A DNA stretch of 64,000 nucleotides, from positions 3,008-67,007 of the forward strand of contig JAFMJW010000004.1 of assembly GCA_017853315.1 (NCBI GenBank). The letters run 5' to 3'. The notes beneath the pieces are model-generated. The model did not search any database, had not been told where the DNA came from, and saw only the letters and a list, made by a program, of their open reading frames with translations. The DNA comes from Alphaproteobacteria bacterium (GTDB taxonomy: Bacteria > Desulfobacterota > Binatia > UBA12015). Below, one piece after another: positions 11,059 to 59,723 of this stretch. Both the position numbers and the translations under genes were made by a program. The number at the start of each line of letters is the position of its first letter. The first letter of the stretch is position 1.

Positions 11059-11838
11059 TCAGAACGGCTCGAAGGGCCAGTTCGAGGCCTCCGTCCCGCC
11101 GTCGACCTCGAGGATCTTGCCGGTCACCCAGCTCGACGCGGGAGAGGCGAGGTAGAGGGCCGCGATCGCGATGTCCTCGACCGTGCCGAGACGCCGCATC
11201 GGCGTCAGCGCCTCCATCTTCCCGCGCAGGTCGTCGTCGAGGAACGGCGAGAGCGCCGTCGTCTCGGTCGCGCCGACCGCGATCGCGTTCACCCGCACCT
11301 TGGGCGCGAGCTCCATGCCGAGCAGGCGGGAGAGGAACGAGAGCGCGGCCTTGGAGGTGCCGTAGGCGGCGAAGCCGGCCTGCGGGAAGCGCCCCGCAGC
11401 CGACGAGATGTTCACGATCGAACCTCCGCCCCCGTCCATCATCTTCGGCACGACGAGCCGCGAGAGGACGAAGGCCGAGGTCACGTTGAAGCGGAAGGCG
11501 TCCTCGAACGACTTCTGGCTCGTGCGCAGGAAGCCCTGCGGCGGCCAGCCGCCCGCGTTGTTCACCAGCACGTCGATCCGGCCGAACTCGGCCATCGTGC
11601 GCGCGACGACCTCCTCGAGCTGCTCGCGCTCGTTCACGTCGCAGCGCACCGTCACCGCGCGGCGACCGTGGCGCCGGACCTGCTCGGCGGTCTCGTCGAG
11701 CTGCTCCTGCGTGCGCGCGGCGCACACGACGTCCGCGCCCATCTCCGCGAACGCGGCCGCGCAGCCCGCGCCGATGCCGCGGCCCGCGCCCGTCACGATC
11801 GCCGTCTTTCCGTCGAGGCGAAACCGGTCGAGAATCAT
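11059..11838 (-). CDS. SDR-family oxidoreductase (3-oxoacyl-ACP reductase-like)
   Basis: TGAGRGIG Rossmann motif, NNAG, and a YGTSK catalytic tetrad. Confidence 0.8.
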   Translation of the reverse strand: MILDRFRLDGKTAIVTGAGRGIGAGCAAAFAEMGADVVCAARTQEQLDETAEQVRRHGRRAVTVRCDVNEREQLEEVVARTMAEFGRIDVLVNNAGGWPPQGFLRTSQKSFEDAFRFNVTSAFVLSRLVVPKMMDGGGGSIVNISSAAGRFPQAGFAAYGTSKAALSFLSRLLGMELAPKVRVNAIAVGATETTALSPFLDDDLRGKMEALTPMRRLGTVEDIAIAALYLASPASSWVTGKILEVDGGTEASNWPFEPF

Positions 11839-11873
11839 GTCGTACGTCTCCTTGTCGAGGTTTCTTCCTGAGA

Positions 11874-13160
11874 TCACGTCCCGCCCGCGGGCGCCACCCG
11901 GCCGCCCTCGCGCAGCGCCACTTCGCCGACCACCACGCTCTCGCCGCCTTCGAGTCCGGAGACGACGCGGGCCTTCTCGCCCGACGAGCCCGCGGTCTCC
12001 ACCCGGACCTTGCGGGCGCGGCCGTCGCGCACCGCCCAGACGAAGGAGTCGGTGCCCTCGCGGCGCACGGCCGACGCCGGGACGAGGACCGCCGGCTCGG
12101 CCGGGGCCGCGGACGCGGGGTCGGGCAGGAACGACACGCGCGCGCTCATGTCCGGCAGGAGCCGCGCGTCGGGCTCGAGGATGCCGACCTCCACCTTGAG
12201 CGTCCCCTTCTGGCGGTCGACCTGCGGGTAGAGCTTCACGACCTTCGCGGGGTAGCGCGCGTCGGGGTAGGCGTCGGGTACGACCTCGGCCGGCCCGCCC
12301 ATGCGCACGCGCTGCAGGTCTGCCTCGTTCACGTCGACCTCGGCGCGCAGGTCGGACAGGTTCGCGATCCGGATCAGGTCGCCCGAGCCCGAGAACCCGC
12401 CGGGGACCGCGATCTCGCCGACTTCCTTCAGCTTCGCGAGCACGACGCCGTCGGTGGGCGCGCGCAAAGTCGTGTACTCGAGGTTCACGCGCGCCTGCGC
12501 GAGCTCGGCCTCGAGCTGCTCGATCGTCGCCGCGCTGACCCGCGCCTTGTTGCGCAGCACGTCGTGCTCCTGGGCCGAGAGCACGCCGGAGCGGCGCAGG
12601 GCGTCGCCCCGCCGCAACTCGTTCGCGGCGAGCTCCGCGTTGGCGCGGGCGAGCACGAGCGCCGCCTCGGATCGCCGCAGGGCCGCCCGGTAGTCGCGGT
12701 CGTCGAGCGCCACCAGCGCGTCGCCCTTGTGCACCGGCTGGCCTTCCTCGACGAAGTAGCGCTCGATCCGCCCGGGGACCCGGACGCCGATCGAGACGTA
12801 GCGGTCGCCGGTCACGACGTAGCCCGAGCCCGACAGCAGGGGGGCGCGCTCCGAGCCGGGCTCGGCCCGCTGCGCCACCGCGACCTCGACCGGCACCGGG
12901 CGGCCGCGCCACGCGGCGAACCCCGCGCCGAGCGCCGCGAGCAGCAGCAGCGGGATCGCCACGCGCCGCAGCCGCCGCCCCGGGCCGCGCTTCACCGCCG
13001 GGCGAGACGCGGGCTCGCGCTCGAGGCGCAAGGATGCCAGGTCTTCGCGCAGCCGTCCGCCGCGCGCGTTCCCGTCGTCGGTCGTCCTGTTCTCCAAGGG
13101 ATCCCGTCCCGTCACGCCCGCCGCAGCGCCTCGATCGGCCGCAGGCGAGCCGCCCGCCAC
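11874..13160 (-). CDS. HlyD/MacA-family periplasmic adaptor (membrane fusion protein)
   Basis: Single N-terminal transmembrane segment, coiled-coil, then beta-barrel-like regions. Typical MFP architecture. The exact start is uncertain. Confidence 0.75.
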   Translation of the reverse strand: MAGGSPAADRGAAAGVTGRDPLENRTTDDGNARGGRLREDLASLRLEREPASRPAVKRGPGRRLRRVAIPLLLLAALGAGFAAWRGRPVPVEVAVAQRAEPGSERAPLLSGSGYVVTGDRYVSIGVRVPGRIERYFVEEGQPVHKGDALVALDDRDYRAALRRSEAALVLARANAELAANELRRGDALRRSGVLSAQEHDVLRNKARVSAATIEQLEAELAQARVNLEYTTLRAPTDGVVLAKLKEVGEIAVPGGFSGSGDLIRIANLSDLRAEVDVNEADLQRVRMGGPAEVVPDAYPDARYPAKVVKLYPQVDRQKGTLKVEVGILEPDARLLPDMSARVSFLPDPASAAPAEPAVLVPASAVRREGTDSFVWAVRDGRARKVRVETAGSSGEKARVVSGLEGGESVVVGEVALREGGRVAPAGGT

Positions 13161-14287
13161 GCCGGGCCGAGCCCGCCGCCCAAGCCGACGGCGAGGGCGA
13201 GCAGCAGCGCACCCCCGAGGTCGGCGAGCGAGAGCCTTAGCGTGACCACGTTCGTCGTGAAAGTCGACGCGCCGAACGCGATCCCGCCGAGCCAGCGCGA
13301 GAGGGCGACCGAGAGGAGCCAGGACAGCGCGGCGCCGAGTGCGAAGCCGAGCAGCGAAAGCGCGACGGCCTCGACCTCGAACGCGGCGAGGATGGCCCCC
13401 CGGGAGAAGCCGAGCGCGCGCAGCGTGCCGATCTCCGCGGTGCGCGACTGCACGGCCGCGTACATCGTGTTCGCGGCGCCGAAGCCCGCACCGAGCCCCG
13501 CGAGCACCGCGATGCCGATCACGATCACGTAGAGCGTGTTCGCCGAGCTCGCCTGCTTGCGGTAGTACTCCGGCTCCGGCACGGCCTCGATCGCGAAGCG
13601 CGGGTCGGCGTCGATGCGCCGCTCGAGGCGCTCGAGGTCGGCGGCCGACGCCGCCCGCAGGCGGACCCCCGAGTAGGGAAACGGGCGCCGCGCGTCGTTC
13701 GCGAGCTCGCGCGCGTCGACCCAGACCTCGCTCTCGAAGGACGAGCCGCCCGACTCCATCACGCCGACCACCTTCCAGCGCCCGCGTCCGAACTCGAGCT
13801 CGCTGCCGACCGTCGCGTCGGCGTAGCGACCGAGCGCACCTCGACCGACGACCGCCTCGCCCGCGCTCGGCCGCAGCATCCGTCCCTCGACGATCCGGAC
13901 GTCGTCGTGCACGCCGAGCGCCGCGGCCTCGACGCCGCGCACGAGCACGTTCTCGCGGCCGCCGTCCCTGGTGCGGAAGAACGGCTGCACGACGAGCTCG
14001 GGCGAGACCAGCGGACGCTCCTCGGCGTCGCGCGCGATGCCGTCCTGGAAGCGGATCGACTGGAAGGCCTCGAGCGTGATCTGGCTCGAGCCGTCGTTGT
14101 CCGAGCCCTTGCGCATGACGACCAGGTTCAGCGGGTGGCCGGTCGAGACGAGCGTGTGCTTCAGGCTCGAGATGAGCCCGAGCAGCAGCGTGCAGGCGAC
14201 GACCACGAGCGCCACGACGAGCGCGGTCATGAGGCTCCGGGTCGGGCGCGCCACGACGTTGCGCACCGAGTAGGAGAGCGGCAGCAC
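13112..14287 (-). CDS. ABC transporter permease, FtsX/MacB/LolE-like (second permease)
   Basis: N-terminal LSYSVRNVVARPTRSLMT FtsX signature, a large periplasmic domain, and a C-terminal 3-TM bundle. GTG start at 14287 is 1 nt after the glycosyltransferase stop. Confidence 0.7.
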   Translation of the reverse strand: MLPLSYSVRNVVARPTRSLMTALVVALVVVACTLLLGLISSLKHTLVSTGHPLNLVVMRKGSDNDGSSQITLEAFQSIRFQDGIARDAEERPLVSPELVVQPFFRTRDGGRENVLVRGVEAAALGVHDDVRIVEGRMLRPSAGEAVVGRGALGRYADATVGSELEFGRGRWKVVGVMESGGSSFESEVWVDARELANDARRPFPYSGVRLRAASAADLERLERRIDADPRFAIEAVPEPEYYRKQASSANTLYVIVIGIAVLAGLGAGFGAANTMYAAVQSRTAEIGTLRALGFSRGAILAAFEVEAVALSLLGFALGAALSWLLSVALSRWLGGIAFGASTFTTNVVTLRLSLADLGGALLLALAVGLGGGLGPAWRAARLRPIEALRRA

Positions 14288-14288
14288 G

Positions 14289-15938
14289 TCAGGAGTCCCG
14301 GGGAGCGGTCGCGGGGGCCGTGCCGGGGGAGGCCCCCCGCTCGATCCTCGCCACGCGAAACGGCGGCGGGGCCCGCCGCTCGTCGACCACGTAGCCCGCC
14401 GCGCGGAGCGCCGCGAGGGTCTCGTCTCCGCCCGAGTCGCGCTCGGGCAGCACGACGAGAACCGCGCGCGAGGGCAGGCGCGGCGCATGCGCGGCGATCT
14501 CGCCCGGACGAAGGCAGGTCGTGCCTCCCTCCCGGAGGCGATCCACCAGCCGCTCGGGCCGGAACGAGCCCTCCTTCTCGAAGACCCCGACCGGCGCGAA
14601 GACGACCGGGAGCGCGTCGCGTCGGGCGTGCCAGGCCCAGGTCATGCAGTCCTCGACGAGCGGCGTGGCCACGACCGTCGGCAGGGAGGGCCCGGCTCCC
14701 GCTTCCGTCGAGACCCGTACGATCTGCCTCCACGGGGGCCCGGGCCAGATCCGGGCGAAGCCGCGCGAGGCAGCGACCGCGAGGAGAATCGCGACGAACG
14801 CCCTGCCGGCGGGCGGCCACGGCAGCCGCGCGACCGCGACACCCAGCAGCGCCACCCAGCCGAGGGCACAGAAGAGCAGGTAGCGGGAGAGGAACATCGG
14901 CGCGCGTTGCGAGACGAGCCATGCGAGCAGCACCGGAACGACGGCCCACGACGCGAGCGACGCGAATCGCCAGCCTTCCCCGGGAGGGTCGTCCGGAGCG
15001 GCCCGCCGCCCGGCGAGCGATCCCGTCCCGGCCGCGGAAGTCGCGGCTCCCGTGCCCGCCCCTCTCGCGAGGAACCATGCACCCGCGACCGCGGCCGCGA
15101 GCCCCCAGAGGAGCGCCGACCGGCCCCCGGCGAGATCGCTCGCGAGCCGGAGGAGGTCGTGGCGGCCCGGCACCGGCCGCCAGTCGTAGGGCTGCACCGG
15201 CATGACCCCGACGATCGCCCAGGCAAGCGGTGCGCAGACCGCGGCAGCGACCGCCTGCGCGGCGAGCCACGACCGGAACGCGCGCGGAGCCCGTCGCCAG
15301 GCCCACGCCGCCGCGGGGGCCTGGGCCACGAAAGCGAACCCGGTCGCGTAGTGCGTCGCGACCGACACGACCTCGACGAACCCGAGGGCGGCGGCCGTTC
15401 GCCGGCGTGGCCGCGCGAAGAGCTCGAAGAAGAGGCCCCAGGCCGCGACGCAGAGCAGCTGGACCAGGCCGTAGGATCGCGCCTCGCGCGCCCACCGCCA
15501 CTCGAGCGGGTTCACGAGGAAGAGCAGCGCCGACCACAGCGCCGCCTCGCCGCCGAAGAAGCGTCGTACGACGAGGAACAGCGCCGCGACGGCCGCGGCA
15601 CTCGCGACCGCCGACGGGAACCGCATCGACACCTCGGACACGCCGGCGACCTGCGCCCAGCCTGCCGCGAGGAGGTTGTAGACCGGCGGGTTCTCGTCGT
15701 GGAAACCGACGTGGAGGATCGTCGTCAGCGGCTGCACGGCCAGCGCCGCGGTCCAGGTTTCGTCGATCCAGAAGCTGTTGCGGCCGAGTGCGGGCAGCGT
15801 GGTCGCGAGACGGATCGCCACGATCGCCAGCGCCGCGAGCCACGGGTGCGCGTCGATCGCGCGAACGGTCGCGCCCGGGATGCGGGCCGCGAGGTCGCCC
15901 ACGGCCCCTCCCCGGTCCCCGCGCGCGCCGGTCGCCAC
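14289..15938 (-). CDS. GT-C fold membrane glycosyltransferase (family 39/83-like, ArnT/PMT-type)
   Basis: LGRNSFWIDETWTAALA first-loop DE motif typical of GT39/ArnT. Many transmembrane segments plus a roughly 130 aa soluble C-terminal domain. Confidence 0.6.
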   Translation of the reverse strand: MATGARGDRGGAVGDLAARIPGATVRAIDAHPWLAALAIVAIRLATTLPALGRNSFWIDETWTAALAVQPLTTILHVGFHDENPPVYNLLAAGWAQVAGVSEVSMRFPSAVASAAAVAALFLVVRRFFGGEAALWSALLFLVNPLEWRWAREARSYGLVQLLCVAAWGLFFELFARPRRRTAAALGFVEVVSVATHYATGFAFVAQAPAAAWAWRRAPRAFRSWLAAQAVAAAVCAPLAWAIVGVMPVQPYDWRPVPGRHDLLRLASDLAGGRSALLWGLAAAVAGAWFLARGAGTGAATSAAGTGSLAGRRAAPDDPPGEGWRFASLASWAVVPVLLAWLVSQRAPMFLSRYLLFCALGWVALLGVAVARLPWPPAGRAFVAILLAVAASRGFARIWPGPPWRQIVRVSTEAGAGPSLPTVVATPLVEDCMTWAWHARRDALPVVFAPVGVFEKEGSFRPERLVDRLREGGTTCLRPGEIAAHAPRLPSRAVLVVLPERDSGGDETLAALRAAGYVVDERRAPPPFRVARIERGASPGTAPATAPRDS

Positions 15939-15939
15939 G

Positions 15940-17106
15940 TCAGAACACCTCTCGCAGCGCGTCGACGACCGGCTTGCGCGCGGCGCCGAGCGCCGGGACG
16001 AGCCCGGAGAGCAGGCCCACGACCAGCGAGAGCGCGAGCCCCGCGGTGACGACGTCGTTCGTGACCGTGAAGTTCCCGAGCGGCCCGAGCGTCGGCCCGA
16101 GCGTCGCGACCGTCTTGAGCGCCCGGGTGAGCGCGATCGCCCCCGCCACGCCGAGCGCTCCCGCGAAGCTCGAGAGGAGCGTCGCCTCGGCGAGCAGCGT
16201 GCCGAAGATCGCGCGCCGCCCGAAGCCCATCGCCTTCATGACCGCGATCTCGCCCGAGCGCTCGCGCACCGCCATCGAGGCGGTGTTCGCCGCGATGAAG
16301 ACGATGCAGAGCGAGACGAGCGCCGTCACGATCAGGATGATCGTGACGAAGCCCTTCAGCGAGCCGAAGAAGTTCGAGATGAAGCTCTTCTCGGTCTCGC
16401 TCGCGGTCGGCGACTCGCTGTTGCGCGACATCTCGTCGATCTCGGACATGAGGGTTCCGACCCGCTCCGGGCGGTCGACGCGCACCCAGATGATGCCCGC
16501 GATCCCGAGCCCACCCCGCCCGGCCGCCTTCAGCGTCTCGTCCAGGTAGGTCCGGTTGATCCACAGCATCGGCGCGTTGTCGTCGGCGATCTCGCCGACG
16601 ATTCGAAGGTCGAGGTTCGCCGGCCACACCGTGCTCCGCAGCGTGATCCGGTCGCCGACCTTCCATCCGTACTGGCGCATGATCTTGCGCCCGACGATCG
16701 CGCCGTCGCGGTGGCGAACGAAGTCCTCGACCGCGCCCGGGGTGAACACGTAGTCGGGGTAGACCGAGCCCACGTGCTCCGCCTCGACCGCGAAGTTGGG
16801 GAACGTGACCTTCCCCTCCTCCTCGTAGGCGCCGCCGAACCAGGTCATCGACACCGCCGCGAGCACCCCGTCGAGCTGGCGCACCTTGCGCGTGAACGAC
16901 TGCGGCATCGAGTAGACGAGCCCCGCCTTGTTGTGGACCGAGATGCGGGTGTTGCTGCCGAGATCCGAGATCAGCCGGTCGAGGCCCGCGGGCATGGTCA
17001 TGAGCAGGCACACGAGCAGGACCGCGAGCGCGATCGCCCCCGCCGTGAACAGGCTTCGCAGCTTGTTGCGGCCGAGATTCGCGAGCACGAGCCCCGCGTA
17101 CTTCAC
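15940..17106 (-). CDS. ABC transporter permease, FtsX/MacB/LolC-like (first permease)
   Basis: [18 protein letters not shown] FtsX N-terminal signature. GTG start overlaps the ATPase stop (GTGA). Confidence 0.75.
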   Translation of the reverse strand: MKYAGLVLANLGRNKLRSLFTAGAIALAVLLVCLLMTMPAGLDRLISDLGSNTRISVHNKAGLVYSMPQSFTRKVRQLDGVLAAVSMTWFGGAYEEEGKVTFPNFAVEAEHVGSVYPDYVFTPGAVEDFVRHRDGAIVGRKIMRQYGWKVGDRITLRSTVWPANLDLRIVGEIADDNAPMLWINRTYLDETLKAAGRGGLGIAGIIWVRVDRPERVGTLMSEIDEMSRNSESPTASETEKSFISNFFGSLKGFVTIILIVTALVSLCIVFIAANTASMAVRERSGEIAVMKAMGFGRRAIFGTLLAEATLLSSFAGALGVAGAIALTRALKTVATLGPTLGPLGNFTVTNDVVTAGLALSLVVGLLSGLVPALGAARKPVVDALREVF

Positions 17107-17936
17107 GGGCGCGCCCCGGCCGACGCATGCCCGCCCGCCGCGAGCCGGATCGCCTCCGAGGCCCGCTCGGCGTCGCTTCCTTCGAGCAGGAGTCCCTTGT
17201 CGAGGTGGAAGACCTCGTCGACGAAGCGCAGGGCGCGCGGGTCGTGAGTGACCATGACGATCGTCTTGCCGAAGGCGTCGGTCAGCTCGCGCAGCAGCCC
17301 GAGCGTCGCCTCGGCGTTCTTCGCGTCGAGGTCGCCGGTCGGCTCGTCGGCGACGATCAGGTCGGGGTCGGTCACGATCGCGCGCGCGATCGCGACGCGC
17401 TGCTGCTCGCCGCCCGAGAGCGTGTTCGGGCGGTGGTCGAGCCGGTGGTCGAGGCCGACCACGCGCAGCGCGGTCTCGGCGCGACGGTGGCGCTCGGCCT
17501 TGCCGAGTTCGGTGAGCAGCAGCGGCAGCGCGACGTTGTCGCGGGCGTCGAGCACCGGGATCAGGTTGAAGAACTGGAAGATGAGCCCCACGTGGCGGGC
17601 GCGCCAGGCCGCGAGCTCGTCCTCGTCGAGGTCGCCGAGCGACTGCCCCGCGACGACCACCTCGCCCTCGCTCGGCCGATCGAGCCCGGAGACCAGGTTC
17701 ATGAGCGTCGACTTGCCGGACCCCGACGGCCCCATGAAGGCGACGAAGCGGCCCGGGGAGATCCGCAGCGACACGTCCTCGAGCGCATGGACCTCGTCGA
17801 CGCCGCGGCGGTAGCGCCGGGACACGTGCCGGATGTCGATGAGAGTCGCTTCCTCGGGCGCGGACGGCGGCGGGCCGGGAAACGGGTCCGCGGGCGGCAT
17901 GCGCAGAGGGTACCGGACCCCCCGCAGGGGAGCCAT
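17103..17936 (-). CDS. ABC transporter ATP-binding protein (LolD/MacB ATPase type)
   Basis: Walker [24 protein letters not shown] signature, Walker [13 protein letters not shown]. Confidence 0.85.
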
Positions 17937-18033
17937 CGAGGAGCGCCTCGGGGATCGCTCGGACAGGGAGCGCCGGGGAGGGCTCCGCGAACTGCCGACG
18001 ACAGCCCGGCGACGGCGTGGTACCGCTCCCGCC

Positions 18034-18603
18034 GTGTCCAACCCGTTCGCCCGAGCGATCCGGATCGTCGTGGAAGCCGCCGATCGCGGCGGCTTCCGGG
18101 CGGCCCTCATCGGGGGCTTCGCCCTCGATCTTCACCGGGTGCGCCGCACCACGGGCGACGTCGACTTCCTGGTGGAGGAACGCGGCGCGGATCCTCTGAT
18201 CGCCGAATTGCAACGAGAAGGAATGCGCCTGCTTCACCGCTCCGACGAGGTCGCCAACCTCGAGTCGTCACGACCGGAGATCGCGTCCGTCGACCTGCTC
18301 TTCGCGCGTCGGGAGCCCACGCTCGCCATGCTGAGTCGCGCCCGGACTCGCCGGCTGGCCGTCGACGCACTCGCGGTCCCGGTGGTCGACGTCGAAGGCA
18401 TCATCGGCCTGAAGGCCCAGGCGATGTGCAACGATCCGCGGCGACGGCGCCGCGACGAGCAGGACATCGTCGACCTGCTCGGGCTCTGGCTGCCGGAGTT
18501 GGACCTCGCTCTTCTTCGAGGCTATTTCTCCCTCCTGGAAGCGGACGATGACTTCGAACGACTCCTCACCGAAGCCCGAGACCAGCGAGCCCGGCGTGGC
18601 TGA
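18034..18603 (+). CDS. nucleotidyltransferase-fold protein (MNT/AbiEii-like), hypothetical
   Basis: GGFALDLHRVRRTTGDVDFLVE matches the minimal NTase G-x(n)-D-x-D pattern. The start is uncertain and taken as GTG 18034. Confidence 0.4.
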   Translation: MSNPFARAIRIVVEAADRGGFRAALIGGFALDLHRVRRTTGDVDFLVEERGADPLIAELQREGMRLLHRSDEVANLESSRPEIASVDLLFARREPTLAMLSRARTRRLAVDALAVPVVDVEGIIGLKAQAMCNDPRRRRRDEQDIVDLLGLWLPELDLALLRGYFSLLEADDDFERLLTEARDQRARRG

Positions 18604-18769
18604 CCCCGATCCGGAGCAGTCGCCCGCCGTCCATCGCCGGGCCGATCGCGCTTCGCGGGCCCAGCACGACATCGACGACTTCCTCCGCTTCCTCGATCAA
18701 GTCGAGGAGATCGGGGGGAAGATCCGCAAGCCGCGGACGATCAGCCTCGGGAACCGCTTCGTCCTCTGA
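18596..18769 (+). CDS. small hypothetical protein overlapping the NTase stop
   Basis: 58-73 aa ORF. Its GTG is 8 nt inside the upstream gene. No recognisable domain. Confidence 0.2.
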   Translation: MADPDPEQSPAVHRRADRASRAQHDIDDFLRFLDQVEEIGGKIRKPRTISLGNRFVL

Positions 18770-18825
18770 CCCGGGCCGGGCGCCCGGGACGGCGAAACGC
18801 GGCAGCACCGGATTGCACGAGCCCC

Positions 18826-18856
18826 GCGAACGTCTCGCAGATCGTCGCGGTCGATC
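18826..18856. repeat. 31-bp direct repeat, copy 1 (gcgaacgtctcgcagatcgtcgcgGtcgatc)
   Basis: Matches 19925-19955 with a single mismatch. Confidence 0.7.
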
Positions 18857-19019
18857 GACGATACCTGGCGCAACGAGCCGGGCGGGTCCCCGCGGCGAAG
18901 TTGGCCCTCGTCCTCGGCGGCATCGACGTCGTGCTCGGACGCTGACGCCCCGGGCGGATCCCTCCTGGGGTCGTGTGCATCTGCCGCCGTTCGAGACCGT
19001 TCGCCGAAATCCGCAGCGC

Positions 19020-19364
19020 TCAGCGCAGCCAGTCGGCGAAGACCCGCCGGAACGCGGTCACCGCGCGGGCGCGGTCCGCCCGGGACAGGCGGCCGATCGG
19101 CTTGTCGATCAGCTCCTCGTCGACGGTTGCGACCTTCGCCATGCGAAGCAGGCTCGGATGGAGCAGCCCCGCCTCCTCCCAGTCCGCGAGCAGCACGTCG
19201 CCCTGGAAGTCGAGCGCCTCCACCTGGCTCGTGATCATCGCGAGCGTGACCAGGGCATAGCGGGGAGCGCGGGCGGTTCGCGACAACAGGAGCGCGGGTC
19301 GCTTCTTCGCGGCAGCGACCTCGGTGAACGGAAACCGGACGAGGACCACCTCCCCGGGCTTCAT
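19020..19364 (-). CDS. MazF/PemK-family type II toxin (mRNA interferase)
   Basis: GEVVLVRFPF...KKRPALLLS is the classic PemK/MazF N-terminus. 114 aa. Start overlaps the antitoxin stop (ATGA). Confidence 0.8.
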   Translation of the reverse strand: MKPGEVVLVRFPFTEVAAAKKRPALLLSRTARAPRYALVTLAMITSQVEALDFQGDVLLADWEEAGLLHPSLLRMAKVATVDEELIDKPIGRLSRADRARAVTAFRRVFADWLR

Positions 19365-19579
19365 AGCCGGTCGTAGTCGGAATCCCGGGGGTCGTCCCAC
19401 TCCTCGAAGGCCGACTCGGCGAGCTTCCCCAGTGCCTTCGTCTCGAGCCGTTCGGCGAAGTACGCCTCGAGGGCCCGGCAGAGAACCTCCTTCACGGTCG
19501 TGTCGCGCTCGCTCGCCTCCGCCTTGAGAAGCCGCATGAGGCGCGGGTCCGAGAGATCCGTCGAGAGTCGCGTGCCCAT
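19361..19579 (-). CDS. ribbon-helix-helix-type antitoxin, partner of the MazF-like toxin
   Basis: 72 aa. A beta-strand then helix pattern (TRLSTDLSDPRLMRLLKAEA) fits RHH. Directly upstream of the toxin with a 4-nt overlap. Confidence 0.6.
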   Translation of the reverse strand: MGTRLSTDLSDPRLMRLLKAEASERDTTVKEVLCRALEAYFAERLETKALGKLAESAFEEWDDPRDSDYDRL

Positions 19580-19924
19580 CTCCGCGCGTTACTGTCTTTC
19601 TGCTTTCATGTCAATCAGTCGACGATCCGGTTCCGGAGCGCCGCGGGGATCGCGGTCGACTCCCGGGACATCGCGCCCCCTCGAAAGGGCTGCGCCGTCC
19701 ACGAAAACGGGGCAACCCCGGACGCGTGGCGGGCCGACTTGCCGGACCCTGCGGTTCGGGTCCGAGGATTTCGTCGACCCGTCGTGGTCGTCCAGGGGAA
19801 TCATCTGAACCGCGGCCGCGTCCCCACGGCGGCGTGCCCCCTGACGAGCGACGTCGCCTGGGCCGACGCCCCCGGGAACGTTCTTCTCGGAACCGCCGCG
19901 ACCGGTCCCCCCGAGGAGTCGGTC

Positions 19925-19955
19925 GCGAACGTCTCGCAGATCGTCGCGATCGATC
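19925..19955. repeat. 31-bp direct repeat, copy 2
   Basis: See copy 1. Lies just 3' of the RelE-like toxin stop. Confidence 0.7.
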
Positions 19956-19956
19956 T

Positions 19957-20241
19957 TCACCTCCGCCGGAGCAGGCGGACATAGACCTCGCGACGGTGCG
20001 CGACGCCGATCACGTAGACGACGATCTCGGTCGCATGCACCTCGTACAGGATGCGGTGGTCGCCGACCCGAATCCGGTAGGCACCCTTTCGGCCCTTCAG
20101 GGCGACCGCACCAACGGGACGGGGGTCGTCCCGAAGGCCATCGATGACGTCCCGCACCAGCGCCCGGGTCTTCTTCGGAAGAGCCAGGATCTCCCGGTGC
20201 GCCTCCCGATGGAGAACGATCCTATAGGTCGTCGCGGACAT
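19957..20241 (-). CDS. RelE/ParE-family type II toxin
   Basis: 94 aa. YRIVLHREAHREILALPKK...YRIRVGDHRILYEV matches the RelE/ParE fold pattern. Confidence 0.8.
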   Translation of the reverse strand: MSATTYRIVLHREAHREILALPKKTRALVRDVIDGLRDDPRPVGAVALKGRKGAYRIRVGDHRILYEVHATEIVVYVIGVAHRREVYVRLLRRR

Positions 20242-20422
20242 CCGACCACGCGACCCACGGACCTCCCCTACGCTCCTCGATGAGCGCCATGTCCTCGGCA
20301 TCCTCGAGCCACGCGGCGATGGCCTCCGAGACCACCGCCTGCTGCTTGAGGCCGTGCTCCGCGCAGAACCGATCGAGCTCCGCCTTGAGTGCGTCGTCGA
20401 TCCGGTGGGTGATGGCAGCCAT
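20222..20422 (-). CDS. RelB/DinJ/ParD-type RHH antitoxin
   Basis: MAAITHRIDDALKAELDRFCAEHG is a typical RHH antitoxin N-terminus. Its end overlaps the toxin start by 20 nt. Confidence 0.7.
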   Translation of the reverse strand: MAAITHRIDDALKAELDRFCAEHGLKQQAVVSEAIAAWLEDAEDMALIEERRGGPWVAWSDVRDDL

Positions 20423-20545
20423 GCCCCGGAGAATGCCAGCAAACGACAGCATTCGCAAGCGACGGCCGGGCCGGCCGATACGAGAGATCCAGCCCATGCC
20501 CAGGTGCCGGTTGCCGGCACGCCCCTGTGTCTTGCATCGTCGCAC

Positions 20546-20767
20546 GTGAAGACCTCGACCATCACGATCCGCCTCGACGACGAACTCGAGCGCGAGCTCG
20601 ACCGAGCCTGCGCCCGCACGGGTCGGACGCGCAGCGACCTCGCACGGGACGCGCTTCGGCGACAGCTTGCGCTGCTCCGGTTCGAGCGGCTGCGGAAGCG
20701 GACGCTGCCCCTGGCGGAGTCGCAGGGGTATCTGACCGACGAGGACGTCTTCCGCGACGTTTCGTGA
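20546..20767 (+). CDS. CopG/RHH-family antitoxin (VapB-like)
   Basis: TITIRLDDELERELDRACARTGRTRSDLARDALRRQL. Its stop overlaps the PIN gene start (GTGA). Confidence 0.65.
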   Translation: MKTSTITIRLDDELERELDRACARTGRTRSDLARDALRRQLALLRFERLRKRTLPLAESQGYLTDEDVFRDVS

Positions 20768-21345
20768 AGGTCTTCTTCGACACGAACGTCCTCGTGGCGG
20801 CGTTCGCGACGCGCGGTCTTTGCGCGGACCTGTTCGCGCACGTCCTGCTCGAGCACGAACGGATCGTCGGCGAGGTCGTCCTCGACGAACTTCGCGAGAC
20901 GCTCCGCACCAGGATCGAGTTCCCGAAGAAGTCGATCGACGAGATCGAAGCGCTGCTGCGCGAGGCGACCGTCGTCGAGAAGCCACGCAAGCACCTGGGC
21001 TTGAACGTCAAGGACCCGGACGACGAGTGGATCGTGGCCTCCGCCGTTGCCGGTGCTGCGGACGTGCTGGTCACGGGTGATGCAGCCGTGCTCCGGATCG
21101 CGGCACGCTCGCCCTTGAAGATCGCGAGCCCACGCGGCTTCTGGGATCTCCTTCGCGGCCCGGCCCGCGAGCGGCGACCTTCCGTCCGACCAGCCGACCA
21201 TCTCCGCAAGCGGGCGGTCCCGGCACCGAGCCCCCGGCGCCGCCCCCGACCGCGGGCCGTGATAAGCACCGACCCATGCCACCCGGAGGCGACACGCCAT
21301 CCCCCCGGTCCTTCCCCCCGCGGATCGCCGGCATCCTCAACATGA
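20764..21345 (+). CDS. PIN-domain toxin (VapC-like) with an extended low-complexity C-terminal tail
   Basis: VFFDTNVLVAA PIN N-terminal motif with conserved Asp. The ORF runs about 60 aa beyond a normal PIN domain and overlaps the DHPS start. Confidence 0.65.
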   Translation: MKVFFDTNVLVAAFATRGLCADLFAHVLLEHERIVGEVVLDELRETLRTRIEFPKKSIDEIEALLREATVVEKPRKHLGLNVKDPDDEWIVASAVAGAADVLVTGDAAVLRIAARSPLKIASPRGFWDLLRGPARERRPSVRPADHLRKRAVPAPSPRRRPRPRAVISTDPCHPEATRHPPGPSPRGSPASST

Positions 21346-22118
21346 CCGAGGACTCGTTTTCCGACGGCGGCCGCTGGCTCGACCCCGAGCGCGCCTTCGA
21401 GCGCGCGCTCGAACTCGTCGAGCAGGGCGCCGACGCGATCGACCTGGGTGCCGCGTCGAGCCGCCCGGGCGCGATCCCGGTCCCCGCCGTCGAGGAGATC
21501 CGCAGGCTCGAGTCGGTCGTCGACCGGCTGCTCGCGCGCGGCGTGCCGCTCTCGATCGACACGTTTTCCCCCGACACGCAGCGATGGGCGCTCGCGCGCG
21601 GCGTCGACTGGCTGAACGACATCCAGGGTTTCCCCGATCCCGCGCTCGACCCCGAGCTCGCGCGCGCCCGCTGCGGGCTCGTCGTCATGCACTCGGTGCA
21701 GCGCACCGGGCCGGCGACCCGCGTCGACACCGACGCGGACGAAGTGGTGCGCGGCATCGACGCCTTCTTCGAGGAGCGGATCGCTCGCCTGGAAGCCGCG
21801 GGCGTCGGGCGATCGCGCATCGTCCTCGACCCCGGCATGGGCTTCTTCCTCGGTCGCGACCCGGAGCTCTCGCTGCGGGTGCTGCGACGGATCCCGGCGT
21901 TGCGCGCGCGATTCGGGCTGCCGGTGCTGGTCTCGGTGTCGCGAAAATCCTTCCTCGGGCAGATCACCGGCAGGCCGGTCGGAGAGCGCGGGGCGGCGAC
22001 GCTCGCCGTGGAGCTGTGGGCGGCCGAGCACGAAGCGGACTGGATCCGCACCCACGACGTCGCGGCCCTCCGCGACGGGCTCCTCCTCCGGCGCGCCCTC
22101 GACGCGACCCCGCCCTGA
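21276..22118 (+). CDS. folP: dihydropteroate synthase, Sul1/Sul2-like (FolP family)
   Basis: GILNMTEDSFSDGG, SIDTFSPDTQRWALARGVDWLNDIQGFPDPAL, VVMHS, DPGMGFFLG and VSVSRKSFLG blocks. They align nearly residue-for-residue with Sul1 as I recall it. Confidence 0.9.
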   Translation: MPPGGDTPSPRSFPPRIAGILNMTEDSFSDGGRWLDPERAFERALELVEQGADAIDLGAASSRPGAIPVPAVEEIRRLESVVDRLLARGVPLSIDTFSPDTQRWALARGVDWLNDIQGFPDPALDPELARARCGLVVMHSVQRTGPATRVDTDADEVVRGIDAFFEERIARLEAAGVGRSRIVLDPGMGFFLGRDPELSLRVLRRIPALRARFGLPVLVSVSRKSFLGQITGRPVGERGAATLAVELWAAEHEADWIRTHDVAALRDGLLLRRALDATPP

Positions 22119-22217: not shown

Positions 22218-24686
22218 ATGGCGCGCACGCGGACCACGCGACGCGCGACCGCCTCCTCCGAGCCGGCGCCCGAACAGACGCCGACCGAACACGCACCGGC
22301 AGCCGTCGAGGCTGCGCCCGTCCCGCATCCGGACGTGGTGGAGGACTGGTCCGACGAGGCCGGTTCGCCCGATGCCTGGGCTCTCGACCTGCCGGGCCTC
22401 GCCGACGACTCGGGGGCAGGCGCGTTCGCGGACGACGGGACACTCGTGCCCGGATCGAGACGCTCGGGGCGTCGCCGACGGCGACGTCGCGGCCAGCGTC
22501 CTGCCGGGCCGGGCAGCACTCCCGCGCATCCGCCGCGCCACGAGGGCGCGGACCGACGGCCCGACCCGAGACCCAACGCAACGGCTGCGGCCCCGGCGGA
22601 TCGCATCTCGCCCGCGGGCGACCCGCCGTCGTCGGCCGACGCATCGCGCCGAGGCGCCGACCCGGGCGAACCGGCCGCGGCGGCGCCCGCCGGCCGTCGC
22701 AAGCGGCCGGCCCGCCCGCCGCGCGAGGAGGCGAAGGCGAAGGCTCCCGTCGCGAGGGCGCGCAAGCCTCGGGCGACGCCGTCGCCCGATGAGGAGTCGA
22801 CGCTCGACGTCGACGCCGACGTGCTCGGCGGGCTCGACCTCCACCTCGACCCCGACCTGACGGAGGAAGAAGAGGACCTCGAAATCCTGGTCGAGGAGCC
22901 GACCGGACCGCGCACCCCGGCCGGCGAGGCCGCGCTGCGCATCGGCATCCGGCGACTCCATCCCGAGCAGGAGCGCGGCATCGCCGCGGTGCTCGACGGG
23001 CACGACGTGCTCATGGTCCTGCCGACCGGGTTCGGCAAGTCGGCCTGCTACCAGATCCCGTCGATGATGCTGCCGAAGCCGGTGGTGCTCGTGTCGCCGC
23101 TGCTCGCACTCATCAAGGACCAGCACGAGAAGTTGCTGCGCTTCGGCATTCCCTGCGTGCGGCTCGACGGCACGATCCGCGGCAAGGCGCGCGAGGCCGC
23201 GTTCGCGCGGATCCGCGCGGGCGGCTCGCTGCTCGTGATGACGACGCCCGAGACGCTCGGCACCCAGGACGCCCACGCGGCCCTCAAGCAGTCGGGCCTC
23301 TCGCTCGCGGCGATCGACGAGGCGCACTGCATCTCGGAGTGGGGCTACGACTTCCGCCCCGCCTACCTGCAGCTCGGCGACCGCCTGCGCGCGCTCGGCA
23401 ACCCGCCGATCATGGCGCTCACCGCGACCGCGACCGAGAAGGTGCGCTCGGACATCGTCCGCTTCCTGCACCTGCGCGACGCGGTCGTCGTCTCGGGCAG
23501 CCCGCACCGCTCGAACCTCGCCTTCGAGGTGCTCGAGTGCCGGGAAGCGGCGCGCATGCGCGCTCTCGCGCGCCTCGCCCAGCGCCTGCGCCGCCCCGGC
23601 ATCATCTACTGCACGACGACCCGCGAGGTCGACACGGTCTACACGCTGCTGTCGCGGCTCGGGATCCCGTCGCACCGCTACCACGGCAAGATGACGGGCT
23701 CGGAGCGCACCGCGCAGCAGGACCTGTTCATGAAGCCCGGGCGTCGCACGGTCATGGTCGCGACCAACGCCTTCGGTCTCGGCATCGACAAGCCCGACAT
23801 CCGCTACGTCGTCCACGGCCAGTCGCCGGCCTCGCTCGAGCAGTACGTCCAGGAGGCCGGTCGCGCGGGCCGCGACGGCGCGCGCGCGAACTGCATCCTG
23901 CTCTTCGACCCCGACGACCGCGAGACCCACGAGGCGCTGCTGTCCCGCTCGCGGCTGCGGCCCGACCAGCTCTACAAGCTCGGCAGCGCGCTCGCGGCCT
24001 GGGGCTCCGAGGGACGCCAGCCGACGGTCGACGCGCTCGCGCTCTCCGCGGACCTGGGCGAGCGCCCGACGAACGCGCTCCTCGTGCCGATCGAGGAGGC
24101 CGGCATCGTCGAGCTCCACGACGACGGCACGGTCGAGACGATGGGCGACCCCGAGGAGATCGAGGCGCGGGTGCGGAGCCTCGCGAGCCAGTTCGCGACG
24201 ATGCGCACCCAGGACTCGCGCCGTCTCGAGACCGTCGCCGAGTACGCGCACACGCCGGAGTGCCGCGCGGTCTTCCTGCGCATGTACTTCGGCGAGGAGC
24301 ACGGACCCGCCTGCGGGCTGTGCGACATCTGCCGGGGACGTCCCGACCGCCCGACGACCTTCTGGTCGCCGATCGCGGCGCCGACTCGACCGGGCAAGAA
24401 GCGCAAGCGGGGCAAGGGCGCGCCACAGGCCCCGGCCGGACGCAACGCCCGGCGGCGCGGACGCAACCTGCGCAACCCGCGCTCCGCGCGCGTGACGCAG
24501 CCCGCGGCGACGCGCGTGCCGCAGGGCTTCTTCACGCAGCCTCCCGGGCCGCGGCCCGCGCCGCAGGCGCAGGCCCCGAACGAGGCGGGAGGCGAGCGCC
24601 GGGAAGGCCGTCGCAACCGCCGTCGCCGCGGCCGGCGTCGGCGCGGACGTCCCGACTCGTCGCCGCCGCAGCAGCCGACGCGCTGA
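22218..24686 (+). CDS. recQ: RecQ-family ATP-dependent DNA helicase with long disordered N- and C-terminal tails
   Basis: PTGFGKS (motif I), DEAHC (motif II), TATAT, and a C-terminal Zn-binding CGLCDIC. AGGAG ribosome-binding site upstream of the ATG at 22218. Confidence 0.85.
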   Translation: MARTRTTRRATASSEPAPEQTPTEHAPAAVEAAPVPHPDVVEDWSDEAGSPDAWALDLPGLADDSGAGAFADDGTLVPGSRRSGRRRRRRRGQRPAGPGSTPAHPPRHEGADRRPDPRPNATAAAPADRISPAGDPPSSADASRRGADPGEPAAAAPAGRRKRPARPPREEAKAKAPVARARKPRATPSPDEESTLDVDADVLGGLDLHLDPDLTEEEEDLEILVEEPTGPRTPAGEAALRIGIRRLHPEQERGIAAVLDGHDVLMVLPTGFGKSACYQIPSMMLPKPVVLVSPLLALIKDQHEKLLRFGIPCVRLDGTIRGKAREAAFARIRAGGSLLVMTTPETLGTQDAHAALKQSGLSLAAIDEAHCISEWGYDFRPAYLQLGDRLRALGNPPIMALTATATEKVRSDIVRFLHLRDAVVVSGSPHRSNLAFEVLECREAARMRALARLAQRLRRPGIIYCTTTREVDTVYTLLSRLGIPSHRYHGKMTGSERTAQQDLFMKPGRRTVMVATNAFGLGIDKPDIRYVVHGQSPASLEQYVQEAGRAGRDGARANCILLFDPDDRETHEALLSRSRLRPDQLYKLGSALAAWGSEGRQPTVDALALSADLGERPTNALLVPIEEAGIVELHDDGTVETMGDPEEIEARVRSLASQFATMRTQDSRRLETVAEYAHTPECRAVFLRMYFGEEHGPACGLCDICRGRPDRPTTFWSPIAAPTRPGKKRKRGKGAPQAPAGRNARRRGRNLRNPRSARVTQPAATRVPQGFFTQPPGPRPAPQAQAPNEAGGERREGRRNRRRRGRRRRGRPDSSPPQQPTR

Positions 24687-24697
24687 AGCGAGGATCC

Positions 24698-25615
24698 GTG
24701 CCGCTGGTCTCGATCGAAGACGGCCGCCTGCGGGCCTCGTTCCTGCCGGAGGCCGGCGCGAGCCTGGTCTCGCTCGAGGCGCGGATCGCGGGCGCGTGGA
24801 CGCCGATCCTGCGGCCGACCCCGGAGGACGCCGTCGCGAGTCGCAACTCGTCGGCCTTCGCGAGCTTCGCGCTCGTGCCCTGGTCGAACCGGGTGCGCGA
24901 CGCGCGCTTCGAGTTCGAAGGCCGCGAGATCCGCCTGCGCCCGAACACCCCCGACGGCCACGCGATCCACGGCGACGTCCGCAAGCGCCCGTGGAACCGG
25001 GTCGCGGCCGACCCGTCGCGCCCCGGCGAGGTCACGTTCGCGTTCGAGTCGTCCGACTTCGCCGACGTGAACTTCCCCTTCCGTTTCGCCTCGCGCCTCG
25101 CCTGCCGACTGCACGAGGGAGCGCTCGAGATGCACCTGTCGGTCACGAACCGCGACTCGGCACGCATGCCGGCCGGGCTCGGCTTCCACCCCTACTTCCG
25201 CCGCTCGATCGCGCCGGGCGAGGAGCCGCGGCTCGCCTTCGAGGCGACCGGCGTCTACCGGGACCTTCTGCCGCGCGAGGCCGCCGGCCCGATCGGCCCC
25301 GGCTTCGACTTCTCGCGCGCGCGGGACTTCGGGAAGGACGTCTTCGACCACTGCTTCGCCGGCTGGAGCGGCACGGCTCGCATCGAGTGGCCGACGAGCG
25401 GCGTCGCGGCGACGGTCTCCGCGACCGAGCCGTTCCGCCACCTCGTGCTCTACGTGCCGGCGGGCGAGCCCTTCTTCGCGGTCGAGCCGGTCTCGAACGC
25501 GAACGACGGCTTCAACCTGCTCGCCCGCGGCGTCGCCGACTCGGGCGTCCGCGTGCTCGCCCCCGGCGAGACGCTCGGGGGAACGGTCCGGATCGCGGTC
25601 TCGACCCCGGGCTGA
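24698..25615 (+). CDS. aldose 1-epimerase family protein
   Basis: GFHPYF motif and HGDV. About 305 aa. GTG start lies 12 nt after the recQ stop. Confidence 0.7.
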   Translation: MPLVSIEDGRLRASFLPEAGASLVSLEARIAGAWTPILRPTPEDAVASRNSSAFASFALVPWSNRVRDARFEFEGREIRLRPNTPDGHAIHGDVRKRPWNRVAADPSRPGEVTFAFESSDFADVNFPFRFASRLACRLHEGALEMHLSVTNRDSARMPAGLGFHPYFRRSIAPGEEPRLAFEATGVYRDLLPREAAGPIGPGFDFSRARDFGKDVFDHCFAGWSGTARIEWPTSGVAATVSATEPFRHLVLYVPAGEPFFAVEPVSNANDGFNLLARGVADSGVRVLAPGETLGGTVRIAVSTPG

Positions 25616-35734: not shown

Positions 35735-36229
35735 TCAACGCGGGCCGGAGTCCGGGGCCAACGGCTGTCGAAGCGGGGCGGAGAACGCCCCCTCGGTGTC
35801 GATCGGGATCGTGACCGGCCCCTCGTTCACGAGCGAGACGCGCATGGTCGCACCGAAGCGGCCACGCGCCGTTCGCAGGCCGAGGCGCTCGACCTCGTCG
35901 GCGAACGCGAGGTAGAGCGGCTCGGCGCGGTCGCCGGGCGCGGCACGCCCGAAGGAGGGTCGCCGACCGGAGCGGCAGTCGGCCCAGAGCGTGAACTGCG
36001 AGACGACCAGCACCTCGCCTCCGACGTCCGCCAGGGAGAGGTTCATGCGCCCCTGCTCGTCCTCGAAGACCCGCAGCCCGACGATCCTCGCGGCGAACGA
36101 GCGCGCCACCGCGAGGTCGTCGTCGTGCCCGACGCCGAGCAGGACGAGCGCACCGCGGCCGATCTCGCCGACGGTCTCGCCGTCGACCGAGACGCGGGCC
36201 TCGCTCACGCGTTGCAGGATCGCCCGCAC
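35735..36229 (-). CDS. dtd: D-aminoacyl-tRNA deacylase
   Basis: SQFTL motif, N-terminal VRAILQRV, about 164 aa. Confidence 0.85.
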   Translation of the reverse strand: MRAILQRVSEARVSVDGETVGEIGRGALVLLGVGHDDDLAVARSFAARIVGLRVFEDEQGRMNLSLADVGGEVLVVSQFTLWADCRSGRRPSFGRAAPGDRAEPLYLAFADEVERLGLRTARGRFGATMRVSLVNEGPVTIPIDTEGAFSAPLRQPLAPDSGPR

Positions 36230-59168: not shown

Positions 59169-59723
59169 TCAGCCGCGCTTGGGGCCGTTGATGAGCGTCA
59201 TGAACTCGTCGCGGGTCGCCTGGTGGTCGCGGAAGACGCCCAGCATGGCACTCGTCGACACGTACGAGTTCTGCTTCTCGACCCCGCGCATCCTCATGCA
59301 GAGGTGCTCGCCCTCGACGACGACGGCCACTCCCTCGGGGCGCAGCACGTCCATCAGCAGATCGGCGACCTGCCGCGTCAGGCGCTCCTGCACCTGCAGC
59401 CGGCGGGAGAACACGTCGACGATGCGCGCGAGCTTCGAGATCCCGACGATCTTCCCCTTCGGGATGTACGCGATGTGCGCCTTGCCGAAGAACGGCAGCA
59501 TGTGGTGCTCGCACATCGAGTAGAAGTCGATGTCCTTCATCACGATCATCTCGGAGTAGTCCTCGGTGAAGAGGGCTCCCCGGACGATCGCCTCGGGATC
59601 CTGGGAGTAGCCGCGGGTCATCTCGCGCATGGCGCGGGCGACGCGGTCGGGGGTCTTCAGGAGCCCCTCGCGCGCCGGGTCCTCCCCGAGCGCCTCGAGC
59701 ATGGCACGGACGTGGACTTCCAT
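59169..59723 (-). CDS. folE: GTP cyclohydrolase I
   Basis: [12 protein letters not shown] and the zinc ligands CEHH...C. Confidence 0.9.

Follow-up and report, generated by a model that had tools for sequence, protein, structure and literature searches.

The 64,000-nucleotide stretch of contig JAFMJW010000004.1 analysed here (hereafter the window) encodes a complete dihydropteroate synthase (DHPS) that belongs to the Sul-type branch of this enzyme family and is not an allele of Sul1, Sul2 or Sul3. The reading that we favour, at a probability of roughly three in four, is that this is the resident chromosomal DHPS of its host, an enzyme that makes folate and is poorly inhibited by sulfonamides; we place the estimate no higher because the phenotype is an inferred one, loop 2 of the enzyme has the canonical form and the view of the genome spans 64 kb. 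The gene and the two segments of most interest within it are as follows.

21276..22118, plus strand: Sul-type dihydropteroate synthase gene, intact, 280 amino acids, identified by profile, alignment and structure-model evidence.
21828..21854, plus strand: alpha6 segment D185-G193 (DPGMGFFLG) with the two-residue Sul insertion, identified by alignments and residue roles from the literature.
21456..21470, plus strand: loop 2 residues S61-G65 (SSRPG), in the form seen in canonical FolP, identified by alignment.

The open reading frame (ORF) is a full-length DHPS according to both the Pfam Pterin_bind model (PF00809; 220 bits against a cut-off of 25.5, E = 4e-65, profile positions 2-244 of 244) and the NCBIfam equivalog TIGR01496 (253 bits, cut-off 162.6). 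The top NCBIfam models are those for Sul2 (NF000295, 298 bits), Sul3 (NF000296, 297 bits) and Sul1 (NF000294, 260 bits), although the scores fall short, by about twofold, of the allele-level "exception" cut-offs for Sul1, Sul2 and Sul3 (600, 575 and 475 bits, respectively), and the Sul4 model (NF033502) returns 118 bits against a cut-off of 600. Searches with phmmer against sequences in the PDB likewise place Sul3 (296 bits), Sul2 (282) and Sul1 (255) above the top canonical DHPS (180). Aligned with the products of plasmid-derived sul1, sul2 and sul3 and with FolP of Escherichia coli K-12, the window DHPS is 56% identical to Sul2, 54% to Sul3, 49% to Sul1 and 33% to E. coli FolP; Sul1-3 are themselves 44-52% identical to one another, so that the window protein is no further from any of them than they are from each other, and it is the nearest relative of none. 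The catalytic and ligand-binding residues N22, D95, N114, D185, K224, R258 and H260 are all kept, in invariant columns of the alignment (N22, D96, N115, D185, K221, R255 and H257 in E. coli).

The first-pass annotation, made from the sequence alone, had described a block-for-block match with Sul1. All of the blocks that it quoted are indeed present with one or two substitutions, but the protein as a whole is nearer Sul2 and Sul3. The window reads GILNMTEDSF where Sul1 has GILNLTEDSF, SIDTFSPDTQRWALARGVDWLNDIQGFPDPAL where Sul1 has SIDSFQPETQRYALKRGVGYLNDIQGFPDPAL, DPGMGFFLG in the catalytic-loop segment where Sul1 has DPGMGFFLS, and LPVLVSVSRKSFLG in the last quoted block where Sul1 has LPLLVSVSRKSFLG; LVVMHSVQR corresponds to LVVMHSAQR of Sul1, except that the preceding residue is Gly and not the Arg that had been given. 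The motifs quoted for E. coli FolP, DPGFGFGK and INDIRSL, are indeed those of that protein.

The feature that separates the Sul enzymes from canonical FolP is found in the alpha6 segment, which reads DPGMGFFLG in the window DHPS and DPGFGF--GK, with a gap of two residues, in E. coli. The segment aligns to Sul1-3 without gaps, with Met188, Phe190, Phe191 and Leu192 at the positions of Met176, Phe178, Phe179 and Leu180 of Sul1; Phe190 (codon 21843-21845), flanked by Met188 and Leu192, is the counterpart of F178 in Sul1, F179 in Sul2 and F177 in Sul3. In the Sul enzymes the inserted Phe lies on a remodelled alpha6 helix, where it would clash with a bound sulfonamide (Venkatesan et al., 2023; PMC10328974). 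Exchange of this Phe for Gly renders Sul1-3 susceptible, exchange of the Leu for Glu compromises resistance, and a Phe-Gly insertion selected in the DHPS of E. coli leads to higher resistance (PMC10328974). AlphaFold2, run without templates, gave a model of the window DHPS (pLDDT 92.2, pTM 0.90) with eight beta-alpha units in a TIM-barrel, (alpha/beta)8 fold, in which DSSP assigns a short helix to residues 189-191. The 14 best PDB chains in a structure search with this model are all Sul3, Sul2 or Sul1, and all of the top 50 are DHPS or Sul; target-normalised TM-scores are 0.88-0.98 for those 14 chains and 0.81-0.90 for canonical DHPS chains, and the closest comparison, to Sul3 8scd, gives 0.98 (target-normalised) with a root-mean-square deviation of 0.7 A over 261 columns. 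The Phe-Gly element that the first-pass annotation proposed to look for is therefore present, by gap-free alignment to Sul1-3 and in a model closest to the Sul structures.

A homologue search of 1.84 billion representatives of 50%-identity clusters yielded 2,096 DHPS relatives at E <= 1e-30, and the two-residue insertion is found in about 90 of the best 150 cluster representatives. In a neighbour-joining (NJ) tree built from 212 full-length sequences, 180 of the 181 that bear the insertion fall into a single clade with moderate bootstrap support (58-60%), and the window DHPS groups inside it and not with canonical FolP. Within the clade it forms a subclade with cluster representatives P0001-P0006, P0008 and P0009 (81-100% bootstrap). 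The preference for the Sul type over canonical FolP, already voiced in the first-pass annotation, thus has four independent tests behind it: profile hidden Markov model and phmmer scores, the gap-free alpha6 alignment, placement in the NJ tree and structure comparison. The further suggestion that the gene could be a relative or a progenitor of the mobile sul genes holds in its first part. The sequence comparisons do not support a direct progenitor of Sul1-3, because identity is limited to 49-56%, the allele cut-offs are missed and Sul2 has nearer environmental relatives in the same tree sample (corrected distance 0.48, whereas the window DHPS is only 56% identical to Sul2).

The window has a GC content of about 73% and carries housekeeping genes (def, msrA, msrB, leuB, leuC, leuD, purA, serA, folE and dksA) together with several transporter operons. 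The genes that flank the DHPS gene, and the one other gene of the folate route in question, are the following.

17103..17900, minus strand: ABC-transporter ATPase, last gene of a MacB-PMT_2-MacB-ABC operon, the conserved left flank.
22218..24686, plus strand: RecQ-family helicase with DEAD, Helicase_C and RecQ_Zn_bind domains (TIGR00614, 311 bits, cut-off 219.8).
59169..59723, minus strand: GTP cyclohydrolase I, folE (TIGR00063, 262 bits, cut-off 181.6, and a Pfam match).

The folE product opens the pterin branch, from which DHPS draws its substrate, so that at least the initial step of this branch is encoded in the window. No other folate-pathway gene was found adjoining the DHPS gene at the locus, and there is no second DHPS in the 64 kb.

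The right flank of the DHPS gene is the RecQ-family helicase in all relatives examined, and in relatives that lack the toxin-antitoxin island described below the ABC ATPase abuts DHPS directly. The closest relative, represented by six contigs (L095-L100) whose DHPS is 97% identical, has the gene order ABC ATPase, Lcl_C-domain gene, 88-codon MazF-like ORF, ribbon-helix-helix (RHH) and PIN genes, DHPS, RecQ, aldose epimerase. Two contigs at 78% DHPS identity (L001 and L002) show an AbiEii-like gene, a 73-codon ORF, DHPS and RecQ, and two at 65-69% (L094 and L103) a short-chain dehydrogenase/reductase, membrane fusion protein, MacB, PMT_2, MacB, ABC ATPase, DHPS, LTXXQ gene, RecQ and aldose epimerase, with flanks that match window genes 11059-17900 and 22218-25615; neither L094 nor L103 has toxin-antitoxin genes at the DHPS locus. 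Relatives at increasing distance thus keep the DHPS gene and both flanks while the toxin-antitoxin genes vary, and the gene and its flanks are for this reason ancestral: the gene lies in the core chromosome and is vertically inherited. The arrangement is no assembly artefact or chimera, since two further metagenome assemblies hold the region at 99.96% nucleotide identity. An operon of DHPS and RecQ was considered and rejected, as L094 and L103 carry the LTXXQ gene between them on the opposite strand.

Rates and composition agree with this picture. The DHPS diverges in step with the core enzyme LeuC, an identity of 82% for DHPS going with 94% for LeuC and 68% with 86%; LeuC from the L094 contig shares 86% of its residues with that of the window. 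Values of dN/dS (the ratio of non-synonymous to synonymous substitution rates, Nei-Gojobori) of 0.13, 0.27 and 0.36 against three levels of relatives indicate purifying selection, and the dS of DHPS is similar to that of RecQ, the ABC ATPase and the aldose epimerase, which together argue for a functional gene diverging alongside its neighbours. GC content at third codon positions (GC3) is 0.954 +/- 0.026 in host genes and 0.92 in the DHPS gene (z = -1.3, rank 7 of 55), which is host-like. As to the identity of the host, the labelled metagenome-assembled genomes (MAGs) nearest by LeuC are an 'Alphaproteobacteria bacterium' (94%) and then 'Candidatus Binatia' (85%), and the remaining named LeuC matches are Thermodesulfobacteriota, Deltaproteobacteria and Terriglobales. 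Because these others are not Alphaproteobacteria, the label of the nearest MAG should not be trusted.

The gap between the ABC ATPase and DHPS (17951-21275 in the window) is filled by a toxin-antitoxin island, in which the following were recognised.

18034..18769, plus strand: AbiEii-like nucleotidyltransferase (18034-18603; AbiEii, 29 bits) and an overlapping 73-codon ORF (18548-18769).
19020..19579, minus strand: MazEF-like module of a PemK/MazF toxin (19020-19400; PemK_toxin, 51 bits) and a candidate antitoxin of 72 amino acids (19361-19579).
19739..19955, plus strand: 5' fragment of a second, decayed MazF/PemK-type toxin gene (PemK_toxin, 34 bits, profile positions 19-82 of 109).
19957..20497, minus strand: RelB/ParD-like antitoxin (20222-20497) and ParE/RelE-like toxin (19957-20241; ParE_toxin, 32 bits).
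20504..20767, plus strand: RHH antitoxin of the PIN toxin (RHH_1 in the Pfam hits of contig L092; RelB-like antitoxin below cut-off).
20764..21345, plus strand: PIN_3 (VapC-like) toxin ORF (Pfam PIN_3, 50.5 bits; TIGR00305, 41 bits).

The three modules that the first-pass annotation had placed next to the DHPS gene, MazEF-like, RelB/ParE-like and RHH with PIN, are all there, the RelB-like antitoxin at 29.7 bits, which is below cut-off, and the MazEF-like genes being called likewise in L092, a contig 99.96% identical to the window. The AbiEii-like gene and its 73-codon partner, which are conserved in L001 and L002 (89% identical at the nucleotide level) and have no NCBIfam or PADLOC match, may represent a fourth toxin-antitoxin-like module; PADLOC returned nothing on the window toxin-antitoxin genes. 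GC3 in eight island genes is 0.81-0.89 (z = -2.5 to -5.5), below the host range. The same gap, with four modules in the window, is empty in L094 and L103, has nothing but the AbiEii-like gene and 73-codon ORF in L001, and holds the Lcl_C gene, the MazF-like ORF and the RHH-PIN pair in L095, so that the window has a single module in common with its closest relatives; the gap is a hot spot of toxin-antitoxin gene turnover. Inserted later beside a core gene, and variable in content, the toxin-antitoxin genes do not by their adjacency imply mobility of the DHPS.

The absence of a transposase or integron integrase, remarked upon in the first-pass annotation, holds for the scanned genes: no transposase or integrase Pfam domain was found among the 66 called genes of the window, in scans of the window genes that were supplemented for about 16.3-37.7 kb by the stored Pfam hits of L092 and that together covered the called ORFs other than those at 35735-36229, 36249-36497 and 45762-45842. 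The decayed MazF-like gene has its 3' fragment at 18825-18949, so that its fragments stand in permuted order; they end in a 32-nucleotide direct repeat (18825-18856 and 19924-19955, 97% identical, 1,099 nucleotides apart) that brackets the intact MazEF module, as seen in a repeat search and by blastn against L095. An integron-like cassette array, which this repeat brought to mind for the toxin-antitoxin cluster, was rejected, since the repeat represents the overlapping end of the split MazF pseudogene and there is no integrase. On L001, an ISL3-family transposase gene (195-1286) lies about 1.7 kb upstream of DHPS, upstream of the AbiEii-like gene, and a PIN-like remnant just upstream of DHPS (2765-3064, minus strand; E = 0.09) is a hint only.

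The overlap of the PIN ORF with the start of the DHPS gene, noted in the first-pass annotation, is confirmed; it measures 70 nucleotides (21276-21345) and results from loss of the PIN stop codon. In contigs L095-L100 the PIN gene has 137 codons and ends at a TGA 96 nucleotides before the DHPS start, whereas in the window and two near-identical assemblies the codon at 21175-21177 is CGA, which adds to the 137-residue PIN product an Arg/Pro-rich read-through tail of 56 codons ending at 21345. Because the read-through overlaps the true start, public gene calls begin the DHPS at Met23 (258 amino acids, P0394) and drop strand beta1 and the invariant Asn22. The ATG at 21276 is the sole ATG, GTG or TTG between the upstream in-frame stop (about 21078-21080) and Met23, the N-terminus that follows from it is conserved down to 78% identity, and it is the only start that retains beta1 and Asn22.

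How the enzyme would work can be outlined from its relatives. DHPS condenses 6-hydroxymethyl-7,8-dihydropterin pyrophosphate with p-aminobenzoate (pABA) to give dihydropteroate, a reaction that the window protein, judged by its residues, would be expected to catalyse. The two extra residues would extend alpha6 (G-F-F-L for G-F-G-K) and set Phe190 beside the pocket for the pABA carboxylate where, as in Sul1-3, it would leave space for pABA and clash with the sulfonyl group and N1-substituent of a sulfonamide, while Leu192 and Met188 would pack the helix. Analogy with these enzymes strongly suggests that the window DHPS is poorly inhibited by sulfonamides, and normal folate synthesis combined with poor inhibition would make the host intrinsically insensitive. 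The toxin-antitoxin genes accumulated later in the upstream gap, with no evident functional link to the DHPS. We infer in addition that the gene is the only folP of the genome.

Several observations weigh against a resident, sulfonamide-insensitive DHPS. The S-R-P-G sequence of loop 2 is that of sulfonamide-sensitive FolP, S(H/N)PD being the form in Sul1-3 and in the majority of the clade; the deep nodes of the NJ tree have no support and the deeper nodes within the Sul-type clade are not resolved; no promoter-like site was seen upstream of DHPS in a scan for the sigma-70 consensus, which may not suit a host of 73% GC; and the sequence in view amounts to 64 kb of the genome, so that a canonical folP could lie elsewhere. 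A single terminator-like site was found, at chance level, and Rfam gave no matches on the window.

The restriction to 64 kb leads to the alternative that survives best, although we think it unlikely, namely that the Sul-type enzyme is an accessory DHPS kept beside a canonical folP encoded elsewhere, for instance as protection from a natural pABA or pterin antimetabolite. Such an arrangement would suit both the limited view of the genome and the want of another folate-pathway gene adjoining DHPS, and it has a possible parallel in Streptomyces sp. NPDC051909, where a Sul-type DHPS (59% identical) stands beside a PabAB fusion in an apparent biosynthetic cluster. It sits less well with a core-genome position kept in relatives down to 65% identity, with purifying selection like that on neighbouring genes, with surroundings in which neither biosynthetic-cluster genes nor, across the window, a second DHPS occur, and with the description of the Sul-motif gene of Rhodobiaceae and Leptospiraceae as the chromosomal folP (PMC6335563).

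It is also improbable, in our estimate, that the enzyme is Sul-like in sequence and yet sensitive, the alpha6 insertion being insufficient in combination with a canonical loop 2. The loop has the S-R-P-G form of sensitive FolP, and an E. coli enzyme that combines the insertion with a canonical loop 2 (EcDHPS-insFG) conferred less resistance in trans than was seen in the evolved strain (PMC10328974). That enzyme nevertheless increased resistance to every sulfonamide tested (PMC10328974), the Phe, Leu and Met are all kept in the window DHPS, the predicted alpha6 geometry fits Sul3 at 0.7 A, and E. coli carrying a distantly related chromosomal Sul-motif FolP, from Parvibaculum or Leptospira, shows a sulfamethoxazole minimum inhibitory concentration of at least 512 mg/L, the host strain itself showing 8 mg/L (PMC6335563). 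An (S/T)RPG loop 2 is found in only about 18 of the 181 clade members, about 90% of the sampled Sul-type DHPS having S(H/N)PD or another form; S(H/N)PD is typical of the clade and not defining, and the SRPG of the window subclade might be either ancestral or the result of a reversion. In E. coli, resistance mutations in the chromosomal gene fall mainly in loop 2 (PMC10328974), so that the level of insensitivity might differ from that of Sul1-3.

The weakest alternative, a recently acquired sulfonamide-resistance gene that arrived with the toxin-antitoxin cluster, is most improbable and largely refuted by synteny: the gene does adjoin a cluster of lower GC3, an ISL3 transposase gene does lie some 1.7 kb upstream in L001 and the closest characterised homologues are plasmid-borne resistance enzymes, but DHPS occupies the same site without toxin-antitoxin genes in L094 and L103, island content varies among close relatives while DHPS and its right flank are fixed, GC3 is host-like for DHPS and not for the toxin-antitoxin genes, dS is similar to that of flanking core genes, and no integrase, transposase, qacEdelta1, ISCR2 or glmM fragment was found among the window genes scanned.

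Chromosomal folP genes with the Sul motif have been published before, and the window gene is a further example from another, uncultured lineage. The motif was defined by Sanchez-Osuna et al. (2019; PMC6335563), who described it in folP genes on the chromosomes of Rhodobiaceae and Leptospiraceae, proposed these families as sources of sul1-2 and sul3, and noted that Sul4 is without the insertion. The Gly-Phe-Phe motif has since been seen in hundreds of deposited DHPS sequences, its significance being called unclear (PMC10328974), and our literature searches on chromosomal Sul-motif FolP returned nothing further than these two papers (PMC6335563, PMC10328974). Carriers of the motif in our searches include MAGs labelled Alphaproteobacteria, Myxococcota and Planctomycetota, as well as Lewinella, Leptospira and one Streptomyces isolate, and the named hosts of the insertion include Bacteroidota, Planctomycetota, Myxococcota, Actinomycetota, Alphaproteobacteria and Leptospira. 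A genome-collection scan with the pattern NxTxDSFSDG, which is unspecific and matches canonical folP too, gave Sul-type DHPS at 9 of the 80 loci retained among the matches listed, none from the lineage of the window.

Two groups of relatives deserve separate mention. Four cluster representatives of 369-539 amino acids (P0014, P0127, P0155 and P0170) contain a motif region identical to that of Sul2 inside longer products, and have the appearance of sul2 fusions or of chimeric gene calls that include sul2. In Streptomyces sp. NPDC051909 (locus L101, 10001-12956, JBFAYA010000007.1), the gene for the Sul-type DHPS P0070, with the motif DPGLGYFLG, lies directly upstream of the PabA-PabB fusion gene, with P450, AMP-binding, ATP-grasp, PLP-enzyme (pyridoxal phosphate-dependent) and glutamate-mutase genes nearby, and may encode an accessory or self-resistance DHPS within a biosynthetic gene cluster.

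If the resident, folate-making DHPS is accepted, an uncultured high-GC lineage joins the short published list of those with the Sul motif in their own chromosomal folP, and in this lineage the motif has been passed on stably, at a distance from mobile elements and under purifying selection. This supports the view that sulfonamide-insensitive DHPS is older than the drugs and common in the environment, and implies that 'sul-like' matches in metagenomes are mostly housekeeping genes rather than acquired resistance. There is also a practical side, in that public gene calls shorten the enzyme to 258 amino acids at this locus. An enzyme that has a Sul-type alpha6 but keeps a canonical loop 2 is a natural variant in which the effect of each element could be told apart from that of the other. 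More tentatively, and with more doubt than confidence, one may picture the SRPG subclade as the sole, vertically inherited folP of its uncultured high-GC lineage and as a natural intermediate between FolP and Sul, insensitive DHPS being widespread and ancient; if true, the two-family (Rhodobiaceae, Leptospiraceae) origin of sul1-3 would need to be re-examined against a far larger donor pool. The breadth of the clade in metagenomes contrasts with the two-family origin given in the literature, and is worth following up together with the pairing of loop 2 and alpha6.

Some features of the surrounding genes are recorded here for completeness. The operon to the left of the island (11874-17900, minus strand) encodes an HlyD-type membrane fusion protein, MacB, a PMT_2 (ArnT-like) glycosyltransferase, a second MacB and the ABC ATPase, and the glycosyltransferase between the two MacB permeases is kept in L094 and L103. 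The RecQ-family helicase has an Arg/Pro/Ala-rich, low-complexity N-terminal extension of about 240 amino acids and scores 396 bits with the PADLOC model DpdF and 314 bits with PsyrT; because it passes TIGR00614 but fails the recQ equivalog, these matches probably reflect general RecQ-family similarity. A tRNA-Ala(CGC) called by ARAGORN at 1919-1995 (minus strand) falls within the 3'-terminal part of an ORF that is supported by GC3 and has a GDSL-lipase domain (1904-3145), so that the tRNA call, the ORF call or the ORF end is probably wrong.

Of the named systems, the nearest to the window DHPS in structure are Sul2 and Sul3 (PDB 7S2J, 7S2K, 7S2L, 7S2M and 8SCD), with which it shares the fold, the insertion, an identical DPGMGFFLG and the Met/Phe/Leu triad, and on which the model superposes at target-normalised TM-scores of 0.96-0.98. 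It differs from them in loop 2 (SRPG against SNPD), in an N-terminal extension of 15 residues and in its setting, which is chromosomal and core, whereas sul2 and sul3 are plasmid-borne or found in an ISCR2/glmM-fragment context. Sul1 (PDB 7S2I), from the 3'-conserved segment of class 1 integrons, is alike in its motif DPGMGFFLS but the most distant of the three, and it sits with qacEdelta1 and the integron, neither of which accompanies the window gene. Nearer in setting are the folP* genes of Rhodobiaceae (Parvibaculum lavamentivorans) and Leptospiraceae, which are likewise chromosomal, evidently ancient and furnished with the Sul insertion (PMC6335563). The window host represents another lineage, uncultured and of about 73% GC; the FolP* of a Leptospira MAG is 41% identical to the window DHPS, and the neighbours are RecQ and an ABC transporter in the window but glmM/ftsH/tetR, or lipoprotein and TPR (tetratricopeptide repeat) genes, at the folP* loci (PMC6335563). 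The laboratory-selected EcDHPS-insFG (PMC10328974) resembles the window DHPS in combining the Phe insertion in alpha6 with a canonical T/S-R-P-G loop 2. It arose, however, by a recent insertion of two codons into a canonical FolP (33% identical) and stands outside the Sul-type clade, whereas the window DHPS, with the same combination, falls inside it.

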